DNA from: Candidatus Woesearchaeota archaeon
GTDB taxonomy: Archaea > Nanobdellota > Nanobdellia > Pacearchaeales > GW2011-AR1
NCBI GenBank assembly: GCA_964593995.1
Contig: CAZQKV010000001.1
Coordinates: 1-24,944 of the forward strand
Direction of reading: 5' to 3'
DNA length: 24,944 nt
The position numbers were made by a program, and so were the translations under genes. Under the pieces are notes generated by a model, which did no database searches, was not told where the DNA came from, and saw nothing but the letters and a program-made list of their open reading frames with translations. The number at the start of each line of letters is the position of its first letter. Position 1 is the first letter of the stretch. Below are positions 4,343 to 14,155 of the stretch, piece after piece.

Positions 4343-4771
4343 TTACCTATATAATCCAATAAATTCTGATTTTTCTAAAATATGTCCTTCCATAGCTTTT
4401 TCAAGTTCTTGTTTTGTTGCCCCGTTTTTTAGATCAAGTTTTGTATCTAATGCATGCAATTTAAAAAAATATCTATGGGTTCCAGAAGGAGGCATGGGCC
4501 CTCCATAATTGTTTCTTCCCCAACTATTTTCTCCTTGGACTCCTGGAATAGAATTTTCTTTAATTTCCATTGTATTTGGAGAAATATTCCATACTAACCA
4601 GTGAATCCATAACCCAACAGGAGCATCTGGGTCATCTATAATCAAAACTAGACTTTCTGTATTTTCAGGAACATCTTCAATTATTAATGTTGGATTAATA
4701 TCCTCCCCATCTCCTGTAAACTTAACAGGGATTTTTTCATTGTTTTCAAAATCAGGACTTGTTATCTTCAT
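4343..4771 (-). CDS. YbhB/YbcL family (PEBP/Raf kinase inhibitor-like) protein
   Basis: Motifs GEDINP, LIIDDPDAP, WIHWLVWNI, YGGPMPPSGTHRYFFKLHALD. Confidence 0.95.
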   Translation of the reverse strand: MKITSPDFENNEKIPVKFTGDGEDINPTLIIEDVPENTESLVLIIDDPDAPVGLWIHWLVWNISPNTMEIKENSIPGVQGENSWGRNNYGGPMPPSGTHRYFFKLHALDTKLDLKNGATKQELEKAMEGHILEKSEFIGLYR

Positions 4772-4808
4772 TTTAAATTCTTGTTTTTGATTAAATTTTG
4801 GTTTGGGT

Positions 4809-4859
4809 CAAACCTTTTTGAAGGGTTTGTTTTGATTAAACTTATCTTTAAAAAGTTTA
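4809..4859. repeat. Two degenerate palindromic elements in a divergent intergenic region
   Basis: CAAACCTTT-TTG-AAGGGTTTG (4809-4829) and TAAACTT-ATCTTTAAA-AAGTTTA (4837-4859). Confidence 0.5.
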
Positions 4860-4989
4860 CATTCATTTTAGAAAAACAAAAACTAGTTTATTTATGTTTC
4901 TGTTTTAGAACTTGTTTTTTATAAGGTTTTAACCATAGAAATACTTTTAATACCCTATTTGCTCCTCTAAATTACCCAAACAAGACAAA

Positions 4990-5787
4990 ATGGTGATTTA
5001 CTCTCATTCAAGACTTTCAACATTTGAACAATGCCCTTTAAAATTTAAGTTTAGATATATTGATAAAATTGAGCCAGATATAAAACAAACTATAGAAGGG
5101 TTTTTAGGAAACCGGGTTCATGATGTTTTAGAATGGATTTATAGTCAAGAAAATAAAGAGAAAACTCTTGATTTAGATGAAGTAATTCATTATTATATAA
5201 ACAACTGGAAAGAGAATTTTGGTTCAGAAATAAAAATAGTAAGACCTGAATATAATTTTGATTATTATTATGATCTTGGTATAAAATTCTTAATAAATTA
5301 TTTTATGAAAAATTCCCCTTTTAAAGATAATACAATTGCAACTGAAAAAAAAGTTATTGTAAAATTAGATAAAGAAGGAGAATATTTTTTGCAAGGCTAT
5401 ATAGATAGATTAGTTTATAACGAAGAATCAAGAATTTTTGAAATTCATGATTATAAAACCTCTGGTTTTTTAAAGTCTCAAGAAGAATTAGATAAAGACA
5501 GGCAATTAGCATTATACTCGATTGCTATTAGAGAAGATTTCCCACAAGCAATAGATGTTCATTTGATTTGGCACTTTCTGGCATTTAATCATAAAATAAT
5601 TTCAAAAAGAAGTTTAGAACAATTAGAAAAATTAAAAACAGAAATTATTAATTTAATTAAAAAAATAGAATCTGCAACAGAGTTTCCTGCAAATTCAAGT
5701 CTTCTATGTAACTGGTGTGAATTTAGAAGTAGTTGTTACCTTTTCAATGGAAACAACGAGAATCATATTGAACAAAGATCTGATTAA
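4990..5787 (+). CDS. PD-(D/E)XK nuclease (RecB/AddB/Cas4-like) with predicted 4Fe-4S staple
   Basis: YSHSRLSTFEQCP, LGNRVHDVLE, GYIDRL, IHDYKTS, QLALY, and C-terminal CNWCEFRSSC (1+3 Cys arrangement). Confidence 0.92.
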   Translation: MVIYSHSRLSTFEQCPLKFKFRYIDKIEPDIKQTIEGFLGNRVHDVLEWIYSQENKEKTLDLDEVIHYYINNWKENFGSEIKIVRPEYNFDYYYDLGIKFLINYFMKNSPFKDNTIATEKKVIVKLDKEGEYFLQGYIDRLVYNEESRIFEIHDYKTSGFLKSQEELDKDRQLALYSIAIREDFPQAIDVHLIWHFLAFNHKIISKRSLEQLEKLKTEIINLIKKIESATEFPANSSLLCNWCEFRSSCYLFNGNNENHIEQRSD

Positions 5788-5789
5788 CA

Positions 5790-7724
5790 ATGTGGAGTTT
5801 ATTTGAAAACAACCAAGAATTGAAACCCTTAATTTTTTCTAATGGAAAATCTCAAGAAGATGTAGTTAATGAAGTTGTTGAGTCTATAAAACAAGGTAAT
5901 AAAATTATTTTTATAAGAGGAATGTGCGGGACTGGAAAATCTGCAATTGCTTTAAACCTTGCAAAAGAATTAGGAAGGACTTCTATTGTAGTTCCAATAA
6001 AATCCTTGCAACAGCAATATATTAATGATTATTCTGATAAAAAATATGTTCTAAAGGATTTTGAGAAAATGAAAAATTTTGAGAAACTGAAAATAAAATC
6101 AATTGTAGGAATACATAATTTTAAATTTAAATATTTAAAAGAATCTAAAAATCCAATTGAAATTAAACAACTGCAAGAAAAAAATGCAAAATTAAGTGAT
6201 ATATTTTTAGGGGTAAGTTCAAAACTAAAGCCAAGTGAAGATAAGTCTTGTAATAATATTTTTCTTCCATGTAAAATAGAAATTAAAGAAAAAAATCTCC
6301 CAATGTTAAAAGACTATATTAAACAAAATCCAGACATCAAAATAACTGATTTTAATTCAGTATTAGATATAAAAAGAATGACAATAGCACCAATCTGTCC
6401 ATACTGGTCTCCAATTCTTCCAGAAGAATTTGAAATCAGGAAATTTAAAAATGCAAGAAAAATAAAGTACCTTGGATTAGATAATAGGAAATTTGTTTTT
6501 AATCAAAGAAAAAAAGGGTGTGGATTTTATGACCAGTATCTTGCTTATGAAGATGCTGATGTGATTATATTCAACAGCATGAAATATAAATTAGAGACTT
6601 TGATGAATCGAAAGCCAGCAACAGAAATTGAAATCATAGATGAGTGTGATGAATTTTTAGACAGCTTTGCAAATAAAGAAAAAATAAATCTTAACAGATT
6701 ATTATTTTCACTAAATCTTTTGTTTCCAGAAGATAGCATAGGGCAAGCAATAATAGATGATTTAATCGATATAACGAATACAATCAGATTGAAAAAATCA
6801 TATCAGGAAGGAGAAATTTTCCCTATTAAAGATACCTTAGTTGAAAAACTTCTAATTATTATTTTAAGAAATCAAGAATTTTTATATGGTGTAGAAGCAG
6901 ATGAAAATAATTATGTTTTTCATTTAGATGAAGTAGCTAAAACCTTCCAGGATTTTTTAGATGAAACTTTTTTTTCAATTGAAAAAAGAGAAAATGACAT
7001 CATAGTTCACTTAGTCACGACAAATCTTGCCAAAAAATTAAAGGAACTTATTGAAAAAAATAAAGTTTTAATTATGATGTCAGGAACCATACATTCAGAA
7101 TCTGTTTTAAGGGGAATTTTTGGATTAGAAGAATTTAAAATAATAGATGCAGAAACTAAACACCAAGGAGAATTAATTAAGTGCAGGCACGGATATGAAA
7201 TTGATTGTAAGTATACTAATTTTCAAAATAATCATATTTCAAGAGAGCAATATCTAAAGGCGTTATCAAAGTCGATAGCAAGTGCTAAACTCCCTATCCT
7301 AGTCCATATAACTGCTTTTTCAGACCTGCCAACAGATTATGAAAAAACCCAATTTGAGTTAGATAATTTACCGACAAGAGCAGAGCTTATGCATCAACAG
7401 GCTAGTGACCCTTTAAGTAAAAAGGTAGCAGATTTTAAGCAAGGCAAGATTCCAATCTTATTCACAACCCGCTGTAATCGCGGAGCAGATTTCCCAGGAG
7501 AAACTTGTAATAGTATTGTTATCACAAGATTTCCATACCCAAACATATCGGCTATTTTTTGGAAAATTTTAAAACAAAATAAGCCAGAACATTTTATGAG
7601 TTTTTATATTGATAAGGCAAGAAGAGATCTTCTTCAAAAGATTTATAGGGGATTAAGAAGTAAAGATGATGAAGTTTATCTGCTTTCTCCTGACACAAGA
7701 GTTTTAGATTTTAAAATTAATTAA
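5790..7724 (+). CDS. SF2 helicase, XPD/Rad3/DinG-like (divergent)
   Basis: Walker A GMCGTGKS, IIDECDEF, MMSGT, RGADFPG, motif VI variant QKIYRGLRSKDD. Cys residues lie between motifs Ia and II. Confidence 0.85.
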   Translation: MWSLFENNQELKPLIFSNGKSQEDVVNEVVESIKQGNKIIFIRGMCGTGKSAIALNLAKELGRTSIVVPIKSLQQQYINDYSDKKYVLKDFEKMKNFEKLKIKSIVGIHNFKFKYLKESKNPIEIKQLQEKNAKLSDIFLGVSSKLKPSEDKSCNNIFLPCKIEIKEKNLPMLKDYIKQNPDIKITDFNSVLDIKRMTIAPICPYWSPILPEEFEIRKFKNARKIKYLGLDNRKFVFNQRKKGCGFYDQYLAYEDADVIIFNSMKYKLETLMNRKPATEIEIIDECDEFLDSFANKEKINLNRLLFSLNLLFPEDSIGQAIIDDLIDITNTIRLKKSYQEGEIFPIKDTLVEKLLIIILRNQEFLYGVEADENNYVFHLDEVAKTFQDFLDETFFSIEKRENDIIVHLVTTNLAKKLKELIEKNKVLIMMSGTIHSESVLRGIFGLEEFKIIDAETKHQGELIKCRHGYEIDCKYTNFQNNHISREQYLKALSKSIASAKLPILVHITAFSDLPTDYEKTQFELDNLPTRAELMHQQASDPLSKKVADFKQGKIPILFTTRCNRGADFPGETCNSIVITRFPYPNISAIFWKILKQNKPEHFMSFYIDKARRDLLQKIYRGLRSKDDEVYLLSPDTRVLDFKIN

Positions 7725-8539: not shown

Positions 8540-9364
8540 ATGAAAAGGGGTAAATTAAATAAAAATATTTCTTTAATAATTGTAATTAGTGTGGTATTAT
8601 TAACTGCTGTTGCAATGTATGCTCTTTTCAAGCCTTCTAAAGAGCTTACTAAACAAGAACTTCTAGATATGATTGAACAAGGAGAATTAGCAACAACTAC
8701 TTATTCTACTGGGGGGTCTGGAGATATTCTTTCTTGTAGTGCTAATCACATAACCTGGACTACCTCCCCTTTTTTGTATCATATTATAACTGGAATGCAA
8801 AAAATCAAAAATGTCTGCCCTCCTTGTTTTGGAGAAGAAGTAGAAGTTTATGAAGTTACTTTTCCAAATCCGCTTATGGGGGATAATTTTTATATAACAG
8901 CTTGTGATGAACCTGAAAATGGTTCTGATGATTATGGTTCTGATGCATATGCCTGTTATGAAGCAGATTTCGCGGATTTGCGTCCTGAAGCAACTGTATG
9001 TCATCAGTGTGATGATATTGGAATTACTATTGCTAATGGGAGTGATACTGTAACAGAAGTTGTTTTTGCTGTAGATATTAAGCAAAGAACTAATCCTACA
9101 GATTCTGATTTTTGGGCACTTGATTTTCAATCTGCTTGTAATGATAATCCTCATTGTCCAATAAATGAAGATTGTCCTGGAGACACAGATGGAAATGGAA
9201 TTGTAAATATAGATGATCAAACAAATGTAATAGATCACTGGTTAGAACAACCTTGTCCTGCTAAAGAAGGATGTTGTGGTGGTGCAGATCTAAATGGCGA
9301 CGGAATTGTTAATATGGCTGATTTTGCACTTGTTACCGGAAACCCAGGATTTTGTACAAGCTGA
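8540..9364 (+). CDS. Cys-rich surface protein with N-terminal anchor and C-terminal dockerin-like (double EF-hand) domain
   Basis: N-terminal TM helix; duplicated Ca-binding loops GDTDGNGIVNIDD and ADLNGDGIVNMADF. Confidence 0.85.
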   Translation: MKRGKLNKNISLIIVISVVLLTAVAMYALFKPSKELTKQELLDMIEQGELATTTYSTGGSGDILSCSANHITWTTSPFLYHIITGMQKIKNVCPPCFGEEVEVYEVTFPNPLMGDNFYITACDEPENGSDDYGSDAYACYEADFADLRPEATVCHQCDDIGITIANGSDTVTEVVFAVDIKQRTNPTDSDFWALDFQSACNDNPHCPINEDCPGDTDGNGIVNIDDQTNVIDHWLEQPCPAKEGCCGGADLNGDGIVNMADFALVTGNPGFCTS

Positions 9365-9384
9365 GATTGCTAATTATTCATCAG

Positions 9385-9398
9385 AACATTTAAATAAA
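9385..9398 (+). promoter_or_regulatory. BRE-TATA promoter (copy 2)
   Basis: Identical 14-mer AACATTTAAATAAA with identical spacing to the ATG. Confidence 0.65.
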
Positions 9399-9417
9399 CT
9401 TTCCTATTCTTTTTATT

Positions 9418-10353
9418 ATGAAAAATGAGGGGTTAAAAAAGAATATTTCTTTAGTAATTGTAATTAGTGTGATATTATTAAGTTCTATTGCAATGTATTC
9501 TCTTTTTAGGTCTCCTAAGGAACCTACTAAACAAGACCTTTTAAACATACTTAAGGAAAAAGGAGAATTAGGAACTTCAACTGGCTACGCAAGTTCTAGC
9601 GGGGCCTGGTGTGGTGGAGCAGATATTAATAAAGATGGAAAAGTTGATATGAGTGATTTTGATATTCTTGCAGATAATTGGTTAAAAGATGATTGTGCAG
9701 AAGAAAATAATTGGTGTGATGGGGCAGATATTGATAAAGATGGTATTGTTAATATGGTTGATTATTCAATTTTTGCAGACAATTGGTTAAGACAAGATTG
9801 TGCTGATGGCTATTGTGAAGATGGGACTTTAATTGGGGAGTGTTCAAGTCTTAATCCTCCATTATATTGTGAAGGTGAAGGAAGTGGGGATTATGGAAGT
9901 GGTGATAGTGGCGGAGGCTCAGGAGACTTAATATTTGATTTATCTAAATGTGGAGCAGATGCAGGAAAATGCTGTGAGTCTAATAAAAATCCTGCACAAT
10001 TTGCAACATATCTTGCATTAAATCTCCCGCCTTCAGAAAGTTGTAGCAATGCACATACCTATTTTGATGAAGCAACTATCGGTGGCTGGCTTGATACTTC
10101 TTTTTTTGAAACTCAGGGAATGGCGCAAGTTTCAGGAGGTTATCCAACAAGAGTTAAATGTTCAAGTAACTCTTTTGTTGTAAAGTCAGGTAGTGGGGTC
10201 AGATATAAACCAACCCCTTGTATTTTTGTTCCTGCTTCCCTTTCTAACCCACAACAACAAGTAGCGATTTTAGATTGGAGTCACAAGTCATATGCTTATT
10301 GTAGTTATACTAATGGAAACAGTGTTGAAGCAGTAGAAGTTGAATTACCATAA
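9418..10353 (+). CDS. Cys-rich surface protein with paralogous anchor, dockerin-like domain near the N-terminus and a Gly/Ser linker
   Basis: Leader homologous to the 8540 protein. Ca loops ADINKDGKVDMSDF and ADIDKDGIVNMVDY; linker GEGSGDYGSGDSGGGSGD. Confidence 0.85.
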   Translation: MKNEGLKKNISLVIVISVILLSSIAMYSLFRSPKEPTKQDLLNILKEKGELGTSTGYASSSGAWCGGADINKDGKVDMSDFDILADNWLKDDCAEENNWCDGADIDKDGIVNMVDYSIFADNWLRQDCADGYCEDGTLIGECSSLNPPLYCEGEGSGDYGSGDSGGGSGDLIFDLSKCGADAGKCCESNKNPAQFATYLALNLPPSESCSNAHTYFDEATIGGWLDTSFFETQGMAQVSGGYPTRVKCSSNSFVVKSGSGVRYKPTPCIFVPASLSNPQQQVAILDWSHKSYAYCSYTNGNSVEAVEVELP

Positions 10354-11611: not shown

Positions 11612-11695
11612 TGCGGAGAAGAGGATTTGAACCCCTGTAGGCACTAAGCCACGTGGACCTTAACCACGCCCGTTTGACCGCTCCGGCATCTCCGC
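11612..11695 (-). tRNA. tRNA-Leu, anticodon AAG (A34); CCA not encoded
   Basis: GCGGAGA/TCTCCGC acceptor stem with discriminator A. Anticodon arm CGTGG-TTAAGGT-CCACG, long variable arm, T arm AGGGG-TTCAAAT-CCTCT. Confidence 0.95.
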
Positions 11696-12891: not shown

Positions 12892-13659
12892 TTATTGTTT
12901 TTCCTCCTTGGTTTTTTCTTTTATTTCTTGAATCTCTTCAGAAGTTTCTTCTGCTATCTCTTTAATTTCCTCATTAATTTCTTTGTCAGCTTTTTTTTGA
13001 CTTATCTTTCCTTTATCTACTTTTTCTTCAATTTCTGCAACCTCTTCTGCTATTTCTTTTTCAGCTTCAGCTATCTCTTCTGCAATCTCCTCTGCAGAAC
13101 CTGCTGTTTCTTCTGCAATCTCCTCTGCAGAACCTGCTGTTTCTTCCTGGATTTCTTCTCCAATTTCCTTTTTAATCTCTTCAACCTTATCTTTTTTCTT
13201 TTTAATTTTTAAAACAATATTTAGTTCCATATCTGGTTCTTCCTCAAGGGTGACTTGGTAAGAAGGGATATTAATAATTCTCTTACCAACAGAAACATGT
13301 TTATGAACCACTAATTGCCTTGCTTGTTTGGCAGTATTTGCAAGTTTTTTCATATAAACAATTGTTTGTAATCTTCTTTTTAACCAATCTTCTTTATCTA
13401 AAGCAAGCGCATCTGCTATGCTGTTGACCTCAAAACCTTTTTTCTGTAATCTTGAAACAAAAGCTTTTTTTTCTTCATCAGATTTTGTAATTAATTGTTT
13501 TGCAAGATTTCTTATCCTCCTAACTGCAGCATCAGCTTTCCAAATCTCTCTTTTATTTTTTAATCCATATCTCTCTTTTAATTCATTTTCTTCACTTATT
13601 CTTATTTTATCAAAAGGTTTTTGCGGTTTTGAATATTTTTTTATTTTTCTTTTTGGCAT
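12892..13659 (-). CDS. rps4: 30S ribosomal protein uS4 with long acidic C-terminal extension
   Basis: Motifs YGLKNKREIWKA, RRLQTIV, ARQLVVHKHV. Start moved to MPKRK (13659), just after the rps13 stop; the ORF-track start at 13764 overlaps rps13. Confidence 0.95.
   Translation of the reverse strand: MPKRKIKKYSKPQKPFDKIRISEENELKERYGLKNKREIWKADAAVRRIRNLAKQLITKSDEEKKAFVSRLQKKGFEVNSIADALALDKEDWLKRRLQTIVYMKKLANTAKQARQLVVHKHVSVGKRIINIPSYQVTLEEEPDMELNIVLKIKKKKDKVEEIKKEIGEEIQEETAGSAEEIAEETAGSAEEIAEEIAEAEKEIAEEVAEIEEKVDKGKISQKKADKEINEEIKEIAEETSEEIQEIKEKTKEEKQ
13076..13146. repeat. Perfect 33-bp tandem repeat (about 2 copies) in the rps4 tail
   Basis: TTCTGCAATCTCCTCTGCAGAACCTGCTGTTTC at 13078-13110 and 13111-13143, encoding ETAGSAEEIAE twice. 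Confidence 0.95.
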
Positions 13660-13669
13660 TTTTAATTCC

Positions 13670-14155
13670 TTATTTCTTCCTTTTAACTCCCACTGTTTTT
13701 TTCTTACCCTTTGCTCTGAAATTGCTTCTTGTTCTTTGTCCTCTTGTAGGGTGTCCAAAAGCATGTCTTAATCCCCTATAAGACCTTATTTTTTTCAATC
13801 TTCTAATATCAAATTCTTTTTTCATATCAAGCTCCCCGCCGATTAAATGTGTATCTTCTCCAGTATCAAAATCTTTTTTTCTATTTAATAAGAACTTAGG
13901 AAGATCTGCTTTATTTTTGCCTAAAAATGCAATTATTTTTTTTATCTCTTGCTCGCTTAGCTCAGCAATTTTTTTATTTATGTCAATTTTTAAAATTTTA
14001 CAAACAGCATTTGAAATGCTCCACGAAACCCCTTTTATATAAGTGAGCCCAACCAAAACTTTTTTATTTCCAGGAATATCAGTTTGCAGAATTCTAATTA
14101 TAGAAAAATAATCTTTCTTTTCTTTTTGTTTTTTTTGTTCTGATACTTGTTCCAT
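13670..14155 (-). CDS. rps13: 30S ribosomal protein uS13
   Basis: Motifs GLTYIKGV, DIRRLKKIRSYRGLRH, RGQRTRSNFR. Confidence 0.96.
   Translation of the reverse strand: MEQVSEQKKQKEKKDYFSIIRILQTDIPGNKKVLVGLTYIKGVSWSISNAVCKILKIDINKKIAELSEQEIKKIIAFLGKNKADLPKFLLNRKKDFDTGEDTHLIGGELDMKKEFDIRRLKKIRSYRGLRHAFGHPTRGQRTRSNFRAKGKKKTVGVKRKK

Follow-up and report, generated by a model that had tools for sequence, protein, structure and literature searches.

A Cas4-like nuclease and an XPD/DinG-fold helicase encoded as neighbours in a DPANN archaeon and fused in its close relatives

Do a Cas4-like nuclease and an XPD-like helicase that are encoded directly one after the other in a DPANN archaeon work as one machine and, if so, on which DNA? 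This question is raised by a stretch of 24,944 nt (the whole stretch of DNA that was analysed, hereafter called the window) from the assembly of a Candidatus Woesearchaeota archaeon (954,843 bases, 74% complete; designated G000). On the plus strand, the window contains the open reading frame (ORF) of a nuclease (4990..5787, 265 aa) followed by that of a helicase (5790..7724, 644 aa). A first-pass annotation, made from the sequence alone, had placed the two genes 2 nt apart and had proposed that they encode a two-component machine of a non-AddAB type, acting in end resection or against mobile genetic elements of a DPANN host. The host assignment was correct, and direct reading of the sequence at 5785..5792 (+) gave the junction TAA-CA-ATG with its spacer of 2 nt. 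According to the ORF map and the sequence, the two genes are in different reading frames, which rules out, in its simple form, that the pair is a fusion lately split by a stop codon.

Fused relatives of the gene pair

That the nuclease and the helicase act together is supported above all by nine natural fusion proteins. Among the best 120 helicase homologues, nine cluster representatives of 901-948 aa contained the domains PF12705 (nuclease) and PF13307 (helicase) in a single polypeptide, with the catalytic motifs of both halves intact. The fusions came from JGI, ENA, NCBI and Logan, and one of them, P0027, was present on 5 contigs, the longest of 233 kb. The first 249 residues of P0027 showed 63% identity to the nuclease of the window; they were followed by a variable linker, which is often Cys/Asn-rich in the fusions, and then by the helicase from its W2. 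By their occurrence in close relatives, these proteins support the functional coupling of a non-AddAB type that had been proposed.

To place the fusions, a helicase tree of 44 rows was used (IQ-TREE in quick mode, with the Shimodaira-Hasegawa-like approximate likelihood ratio test, SH-aLRT, as the only support; L015, L020 and L024 were left out). One clade (SH-aLRT 99) consisted of 8 rows with adjacent genes and 9 rows with fused genes, and 22/22 rows with separate genes fell outside it. The fusions were found in two supported subclades, one of 7 rows (99) and one of 2 rows (98). Judged from this branching, either fusion or fission would have occurred more than once within the clade, with the reservation that the tree forces only one change and does not fix the order of fusion and fission.

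The adjacent arrangement was equally confined. The nuclease gene was located directly upstream of the helicase gene in 8/8 loci with a helicase at least 55% identical to that of the window, namely the window itself, two named contigs of metagenome-assembled genomes (L003 and L004) and 5/5 other species of the genus. Order and orientation were constant in all eight, with spacers of mostly a few to ~90 nt (~400 nt in G096). In loci with a helicase at most 54% identical, the nuclease was found in 0/25 upstream flanks (of 0.67-1.5 kb). From these sequences, adjacency with the nuclease first appears to have arisen at the base of one clade, comprising the window's genus and close relatives.

A predicted model of the fused protein (predicted local distance difference test, pLDDT, 86.8; predicted template modelling score, pTM, 0.67) contained a disordered linker. 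Its best match in the PDB, at E 3.9e-22 over 916 alignment columns, was the DinG of Finegoldia magna (FmaDinG, 9kqh_A), an EndoDinG. EndoDinG was named in a 2025 review of bacterial DinG-like proteins, where, in the text accessible to us, a nuclease comes first on an XPD-fold iron-sulphur (Fe-S) motor (PMC11981726). FmaDinG (PDB 9KQH) was described in 2026 as a Mn2+-preferring endonuclease and 5'-3' helicase with ATP-dependent deep processing (PMC13650095, accessible parts). For the split proteins, a prediction of the helicase and nuclease as a complex, with alignments, scored 0.00 against a mark of 0.32; controls were not run, and this value counts neither for nor against binding.

Identity and motifs of the two proteins

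The nuclease is a solo Cas4/AddB-like protein of the PD-(D/E)XK type. It matched Pfam family PF12705 (PDDEXK_1) with E 2e-30 (107 bits, cut-off 22) over profile positions 3-246 of 247, and it did not reach the score cut-offs for CRISPR-type Cas4 (39.2 bits versus 65 for TIGR00372, 14.9 versus 22.7 for PF01930). Homologues were numerous (4330 at E<=1e-3 among 4579 candidates), with source names such as 'putative RecB family exonuclease' or 'PD-(D/E)XK nuclease family protein'. A PDB search with the single nuclease sequence gave no match, and with the nuclease profile only matches with E of at least 0.11. The nuclease domain of a fused relative had structural matches to the Cas4-family protein ACE1 (9iac; TMt, the TM-score normalised to target length, 0.63) and to the nuclease domains of AdnAB.

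Nineteen orthologues and paralogues were aligned to score the conservation of the nuclease motifs. The 1+3 cysteine staple and the QxxxY motif pointed out in the first-pass annotation were both present and invariant in 19/19 sequences: C15, the lone N-terminal cysteine (5032..5034, +), the three C-terminal cysteines C240-x2-C243-x5-C249 (5707..5736, +), and QLALY (Q172...Y176; 5503..5517, +). Equally invariant (19/19) were D139, E151, H153, D154, Y155, K156 and T157 of the catalytic core (5404..5460, +), which is formed by D139 in GYIDRL and by E151-I-H-D154-Y-K156-T. C15, C240, C243 and C249 constitute the predicted Fe-S site. Three PF12705 genes were present in G000; the other two are located on contigs C63:677-1438 and C83:3078-3707 (L039 and L040). 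The C63 nuclease (open frame of 396 aa) is one of a group of paralogues, among them L055 and L056, in which a helical extension of ~140 aa is added to the C-terminus.

The helicase has the fold of the XPD/DinG helicases of superfamily 2 (SF2). It matched Helicase_C_2 (PF13307) with E 1.4e-13 (51.7 bits, cut-off 25.3), and its N-terminus was matched only by the ResIII and DEAD models; no match to DEAD_2 (PF06733) was found in this protein or anywhere in G000. The AlphaFold2 model (pLDDT 87.3, pTM 0.83) showed the four-domain fold, with two motor domains, an Fe-S domain and an Arch domain. The top Foldseek matches were DinG, EndoDinG, Rad3/XPD and CasDinG (E 2e-20 to 1e-14), and E. coli DinG (2e-20) and F. 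magna DinG (2.6e-18) matched over the full length with a probability of 1.00. Full-length matches, likewise with a probability of 1.00, were also obtained with CasDinG (7xex and 8e2w, E about 1e-16 to 1e-17) and Rad3/XPD, including archaeal XPD, and the highest TMq (TM-score normalised to query length) was that of yeast Rad3 (0.63). The first-pass annotation had identified both proteins correctly, the nuclease as Cas4/AddB-like with an Fe-S cluster and the helicase as a divergent SF2 member with the XPD/DinG fold.

With the single helicase sequence, only 9kqh_A (FmaDinG) was found in the PDB under E = 0.001 (8.5e-6), the next matches being RuvB-like proteins, from 0.011. The family profile matched the structures of archaeal XPD at 2.8e-25 to 4e-18, among them 3crv (2.8e-25, 92 bits), 9p55 (1.6e-20) and 4a15 (7.5e-20), followed by FANCJ (1.4e-17), FmaDinG (1.1e-14, 57 bits), CasDinG (6e-9) and E. 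coli DinG (3.4e-8, 36 bits). The family is small: clustering at 50% identity gave 511 representatives with E<=1e-3 in a set of 1.84 billion proteins, and its named members are all archaeal (Pacearchaeota, Nanoarchaeota, Woesearchaeota and Methanohalarchaeum). A supposed related locus in Duncaniella (L006) proved spurious, with 33% identity over 57 residues only.

The only PF13307 genes in G000 were that of the window helicase and a second copy on contig C14 (8922-10373; L002). This copy ends at the contig edge. Its identity is 53% to the window copy but 63% to the helicases of G036, G044 and G056, which belong to another family of the order and with which it groups in the tree; the contig may have been mis-binned, or the copy may be a paralogue that was acquired. 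By sequence comparison, the window helicase is taken to be the only recognisable XPD-family helicase of its lineage. In a sample of 151 genomes of the Pacearchaeota-type DPANN order, in which presence was scored with the window proteins as queries, DEAD_2 matches were found in 9 genomes, six of which (G010, G022, G028, G032, G050 and G062) had no match to the window helicase; this suggests that the helicase family stands in for canonical XPD.

The nearness to XPD brings in a different explanation of the pair, in which the helicase is the archaeal XPD orthologue of an excision-repair-like pathway and the nuclease its incision partner, so that bubbles containing damage would be opened and cut, and not DNA ends. 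The archaeal XPB-Bax1 pair is a helicase-nuclease parallel for such an arrangement. The order of the profile matches, with 3crv and 9p55 ahead of FmaDinG and E. coli DinG, and the seemingly complementary distribution of the family and the DEAD_2 XPD-like genes both agree with it. On the other hand, the helicase fails the DEAD_2 model, the locus shows no linkage to any further excision-repair partner, and the characterised enzymes of the Cas4 family are, in the accessible text of PMC3466216, 5'-3' single-strand exonucleases or end-processing endonucleases and not bubble-incision enzymes. We regard this explanation as distinctly unlikely.

Conservation of the helicase motifs was assessed in an alignment of 40 sequences and in a closer comparison of 13, the window helicase and 12 relatives. 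The residues of Walker A, Walker B and motifs III, V and VI were invariant in the larger alignment, in which Q22 (Q-motif), G49, K50, D284, E285, D287, T433, R564, D567, Q616, R620 and R623 did not vary. Walker A reads G47-T-G-K50-S51 (5928..5942, +). The two peculiarities reported by the first-pass annotation, the Walker B sequence DECD (D284-E-C-D287; motif II, 6639..6650, +) and the motif VI sequence QKIYRGLR (Q616-K-I-Y-R620-G-L-R623; 7635..7658, +), recurred in 13/13 sequences. Compared with the textbook QxxGRxxR, motif VI has a single change, Tyr for Gly; Tyr at position +3 is typical of the order, and Gly or Ala is found in distant family members. From these motifs, ATP-dependent unwinding of DNA in the 5'-3' direction is predicted for the helicase.

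The Fe-S region of the window helicase is altered. The family has four Fe-S cysteines, C113, C161, C203 and C244, and the window helicase has three of these (6270..6521, +): C161 (6270-6272), C203 (6396-6398) and C244 (6519-6521), all three present in 13/13 sequences; in the 40-sequence alignment C244 was invariant and C161 and C203 were conserved in at least 90%. At 6111..6128 (+), the stretch GIHNFKF replaces the family sequence GRxNFxC, with I108 for Arg and F113 for the first Fe-S cysteine, whereas 12/12 relatives have both the Arg and the Cys. Each of these two codons differs from the usual one by one G-to-T change. A further cysteine near the Fe-S site, C154, is Cys or Ala in relatives. 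Directly upstream of the altered motif, Tandem Repeats Finder detected an in-frame tandem duplication of 18 nt (6058..6093, +; 2.0 copies, 94% matches, score 65), which encodes DFEKMK/NFEKLK.

Contigs from two runs labelled salt marsh metagenomes (X2 and X3, which may include the sample from which the window was assembled) had a G at 6112, giving Arg108, and the same codon 113 as the window. Because the contigs of these two runs agree at codon 113, Phe113 appears to be genuine. Runs X1 and X2 also contained a contig of 10,044 bases with deeper coverage, which matched only short conserved pieces of the helicase gene (window 5830-6697) with ~90% identity, from which it follows that a related organism with its own helicase copy co-occurs in these samples.

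Inteins with a LAGLIDADG domain were found in four relatives of the helicase (P0022, P0040, P0073 and P0086), in P0040 precisely between K50 and S51 of Walker A. In G126, an intein is also present in the gyrA gene that adjoins the nuclease gene (L060:5813-9556).

Genomic context and distribution

Outside the clade with adjacent or fused genes, the nuclease gene and the helicase gene each had neighbours of their own. The nuclease gene was found next to gyrA in 5/10 loci, and the genes for eIF2-gamma and S6e were nearby in 5/10 loci. The helicase gene followed rpl1-rpl10-rpl12 in 3/10 loci and was located beside topA and a RadA-like gene in one of the ten and beside a Toprim gene in another. Both are mostly single-copy, housekeeping genome-maintenance genes that are usually far apart in the order; their ribosomal, gyrase and topoisomerase neighbourhoods, their single-copy state and the intein in Walker A point to housekeeping and not to a defence island.

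The earlier statement that the pair has no CRISPR context was upheld in the window, the genus and the assembly. None of the 5 tandem repeats in the window (Tandem Repeats Finder) was a CRISPR array, no CRISPR family of Rfam was detected there, and none of the 29 ORFs of the window was a cas or csf gene. Cas1 was found in 0/5 genomes of the genus. A naive scan of the whole assembly gave no repeat-spacer array with unique spacers, contig C98 being flagged only and not inspected. The sequence at C15:471-740 in G000 was rejected as a CRISPR array, as it consists of four noncoding tandem copies of ~67 bp with a core of 31 nt and with intervening segments that are pairwise duplicated.

A search with PADLOC, as had been recommended, gave matches for both proteins: the typeIV_DinG model PDLC01439 matched residues 20-638 of the helicase at 2.3e-33, and Cas4 models matched the nuclease at 8e-11. 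PDLC01439, for which there is no curated cut-off, is suspected to be a generic Rad3/DinG profile, and neither the CRISPR-type Cas4 models nor TIGR03117 (Csf4; 17.5 bits, cut-off 400) reached their cut-offs. Taken at face value, the PADLOC matches would make the pair an anti-phage or anti-plasmid module, CasDinG-like or another helicase-nuclease that degrades invading DNA. An HsdM methylase gene 2 kb from one helicase locus (L041) is also in favour of this, as is the suggestion, in the accessible text of Hudaiberdiev et al. 2017 (PMC5704561), that some DPANN solo-Cas4 next to restriction-modification genes may serve defence. Weighing against it are the lack of Cas1 and of CRISPR arrays, the low score against TIGR03117, and genes that are largely single-copy, lie in housekeeping surroundings and give a tree (that of the helicase) clustering by taxonomic family. 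The role against mobile genetic elements considered in the first-pass annotation was therefore not borne out; we hold it to be very improbable, and DNA repair is more likely than virus defence as the use of the pair.

The helicase was present in 104/151 genomes of the order (50/68 of high quality, and 85/105 of the window's own family), and the nuclease in 81/151, with strong matches in 72. At the thresholds used, both genes were detected in 61 genomes and neither in 36; the helicase occurred without the nuclease in 43 and the nuclease without the helicase in 11. In a sample of 301 genomes from across the phylum, the helicase was detected by profile in 16, restricted to the order and one other family. 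In G139, nuclease and helicase genes share a strand and are separated by 1.5 kb, an interval that contains a diguanylate-cyclase (GGDEF) gene on the opposite strand (L059:6352-7098, 2.7e-42). A weaker hint of linkage was that the longest contigs of 26 helicase and 26 nuclease metagenome clusters were identical in size, some of 2.4-7 kb, and these may be the same contigs.

Several of these observations weigh against the nuclease and the helicase being a fixed pair. Conservation of the pair across DPANN, which had been put forward as a check, was not found: outside the one clade the genes are unlinked, and they are within 1.5 kb of each other in only 7 of the 61 genomes with both. A distance of 26-336 kb separates them in 8 genomes that have both on one contig, and the others have them on different contigs. 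Since the presence patterns are only loosely coupled, the partnership cannot be obligatory in the order as a whole. The placement of the nuclease relative to the helicase in the fused model is uncertain, as indicated by the pTM, the disordered linker and a root mean square deviation of 20.7 Å to 9kqh, and the loss of the first Fe-S cysteine in the window helicase (F113) may mean that its activity is altered or reduced.

The same data could be explained by two independent housekeeping enzymes that became neighbours by rearrangement in one clade, the fusions being tolerated read-through accidents. The separate location of the genes in most of the order, the loose coupling of their presence and the conserved housekeeping neighbourhood that each gene has elsewhere are what this explanation predicts. 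It is less easily reconciled with the constant order and orientation, mostly with short spacers, in all eight loci of the clade, or with nine fused representatives in two well-supported subclades that have kept their catalytic motifs. The nuclease-first layout, moreover, is also that of bacterial EndoDinG, in which the two activities are coupled according to the accessible parts of PMC13650095. Independence of the two enzymes is unlikely in our opinion, and we favour a joint helicase-nuclease unit.

Following another proposal of the first-pass annotation, the genomes were searched for the resection factors HerA, NurA, Mre11 and Rad50. NurA (PF09376) was not found in 150/151 genomes of the order, the one exception being a sub-threshold hit, and the control search found it in 4/4 archaeal control genomes. 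This lack fits a role of the joint unit in resection or flap processing, without proving it. As a further point on the opposite side, the genus has candidates for Mre11-like and short Rad50-like proteins, both under the curated cut-offs, with a Rad50-like ORF of ~685 aa in 5/5 genomes of the genus scoring far below the cut-off. HerA is ambiguous, the DUF87 matches being too generic to call HerA. Because of these sub-cut-off candidates and of the ambiguity of HerA, the argument that the pair is a replacement for HerA-NurA is circumstantial. Matches to the Rad50 zinc hook were ruled out as Rad50, as they are located in SMC (TIGR02168, 526 bits). In G088 (L061:4505-8563), this short SMC (955 aa, its TIGR02168 score being below the cut-off) is convergent with a Mre11-like phosphoesterase (396 aa), and the two coding regions abut.

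The neighbours of the pair in the window encode a XerA-like recombinase, a PEBP protein, a membrane protein and dockerin proteins, and beyond these genes comes a ribosomal operon. The PEBP gene (4343-4771, minus strand) is divergent from the nuclease gene. According to the ORF map and the Pfam match of this neighbour, the two genes share an intergenic region of 218 nt (4772..4989), which is presumed to contain the promoter of the two-gene unit. Dockerin-type repeats are present in two adjacent secreted or membrane-anchored proteins (8540-10353), one of which contains a 105-nt tandem repeat (9607-9803). ARAGORN predicted a tRNA-Leu(aag) at 11612-11695; an Rfam search at gathering threshold gave only the other two tRNAs of the window. 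The gene for an S4-domain ribosomal protein (290 aa, 12892-13764, minus strand) is unusually long, overlaps the next ORF and contains a perfect 33-nt tandem repeat (13076-13146; 2.2 copies, 100% matches).

Proposed role and relation to known systems

Taken together, the nuclease and the helicase probably work together in genome maintenance, and a split helicase-nuclease unit with a role in repair is, on balance, the explanation that we prefer, with modest confidence. From the clade-specific adjacency and the repeated fusion (about 900-950 aa), the two proteins would be subunits of one helicase-nuclease machine. An end, flap or fork with single-stranded DNA would be the loading site of the motor, which would move 5'-to-3' with ATP and, in moving, feed or expose a strand to the Cas4-type nuclease. 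The most likely role of such a machine would be the processing of DNA ends or flaps for recombinational repair or fork restart; resection of ends or flaps in the strict sense is a tentative proposal. For this scheme we infer the physical interaction of the split proteins, the polarity of the helicase, the specificity of the nuclease, the substrate and the pathway.

The architecture matches a system that has already been described, EndoDinG (PMC11981726 and PMC13650095, in their accessible text), and the split archaeal form differs from it. Common to both is a PD-(D/E)XK nuclease N-terminal to an XPD-fold Fe-S helicase, 9kqh_A being the best structural match of P0027, and the coordination of a nuclease with a 5'-3' motor is the published model for EndoDinG (PMC13650095, accessible parts). 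The window, however, has two genes, and a single polypeptide is found only in the nine related cluster representatives. The host is a DPANN archaeon, whereas the hosts listed for EndoDinG in the accessible text of both papers are bacterial orders only. The nuclease here is a 250-aa Cas4/AddB-type protein with four invariant cysteines of its own, whereas the accessible text of PMC11981726 places the EndoDinG cluster in the helicase only. Finally, the helicase profile scores higher with archaeal XPD than with FmaDinG (92 versus 57 bits), and linkage arose within one archaeal clade. Because of the origin of the linkage, the XPD-nearer profile and the separate cysteine cluster of the nuclease, the sequences suggest that the archaeal pair may have been assembled independently of EndoDinG.

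The helicase resembles archaeal XPD (3CRV of S. acidocaldarius; 2VSF, 4A15 and 9P55 of T. acidophilum) in its best profile matches, its four-domain fold and the four-cysteine Fe-S motif of its family. It is different in failing the DEAD_2 model, in the DECD of Walker B, in the Tyr of motif VI and in its narrow distribution. To our knowledge, no pairing of canonical archaeal XPD with a Cas4-like nuclease is known.

The nuclease agrees with solo Cas4 in its membership of PF12705, its 1+3 cysteines and its location outside CRISPR loci. In the accessible text of Hudaiberdiev et al. 2017 (PMC5704561), most DPANN encode solo-Cas4, some of them two. The same text links pfam12705 nucleases to UvrD-like SF1 (superfamily 1) and COG1205 helicases; an XPD-like partner such as the one described here is absent from this account, and 'DinG' occurs 0 times in the main text. 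We found no description of an archaeal XPD-Cas4 pair in the open full-text literature, a search that did not extend to subscription journals or to the supplementary material on EndoDinG.

Two further comparisons concern the partners and their motors. As in Dna2, AddAB and AdnAB, which process ends or flaps, an Fe-S RecB-family nuclease is combined here with a DNA motor, and the nuclease domain resembles those of AdnA and AdnB; by analogy, the logic of the helicase-nuclease pair would resemble that of Dna2. The motors of these systems are SF1 enzymes, whereas here the motor has the SF2 XPD fold, and neither a Chi-scanning domain nor a second nuclease is present. CasDinG (Csf4) shares the XPD/DinG fold, and the PADLOC typeIV_DinG model matches the helicase; the locus differs in having no csf genes, array or Cas1 and in a TIGR03117 score far below the cut-off. 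CasDinG has a degenerate pseudo-FeS domain, as stated in the accessible parts of PMC13650095, whereas the four cysteines are kept in the helicase family described here.

These findings do not overturn current ideas, as the architecture was already known. With no recognisable NurA throughout the order, it must be asked how DNA ends are resected in these reduced archaea. Whether this helicase family can do without its first Fe-S ligand could be examined with the natural C113F variant. Unlinked, adjacent and fused genes form a series that illustrates cleanly how a helicase-nuclease is assembled, seemingly in convergence with EndoDinG. The cellular roles of archaeal XPD and solo Cas4 are unsettled, and the adjacent and fused genes of this clade are a hint from nature that both can act on one DNA substrate. 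In a bolder and rather doubtful version of this idea, the sole XPD-like helicase and the solo Cas4 would form the main machine for 5'-strand resection and flap processing in these organisms, assembled independently of EndoDinG and seen here at three stages (unlinked, adjacent and fused). If true, two archaeal protein families of long unclear role, XPD and solo Cas4, would thereby be assigned a definite task in the cell.

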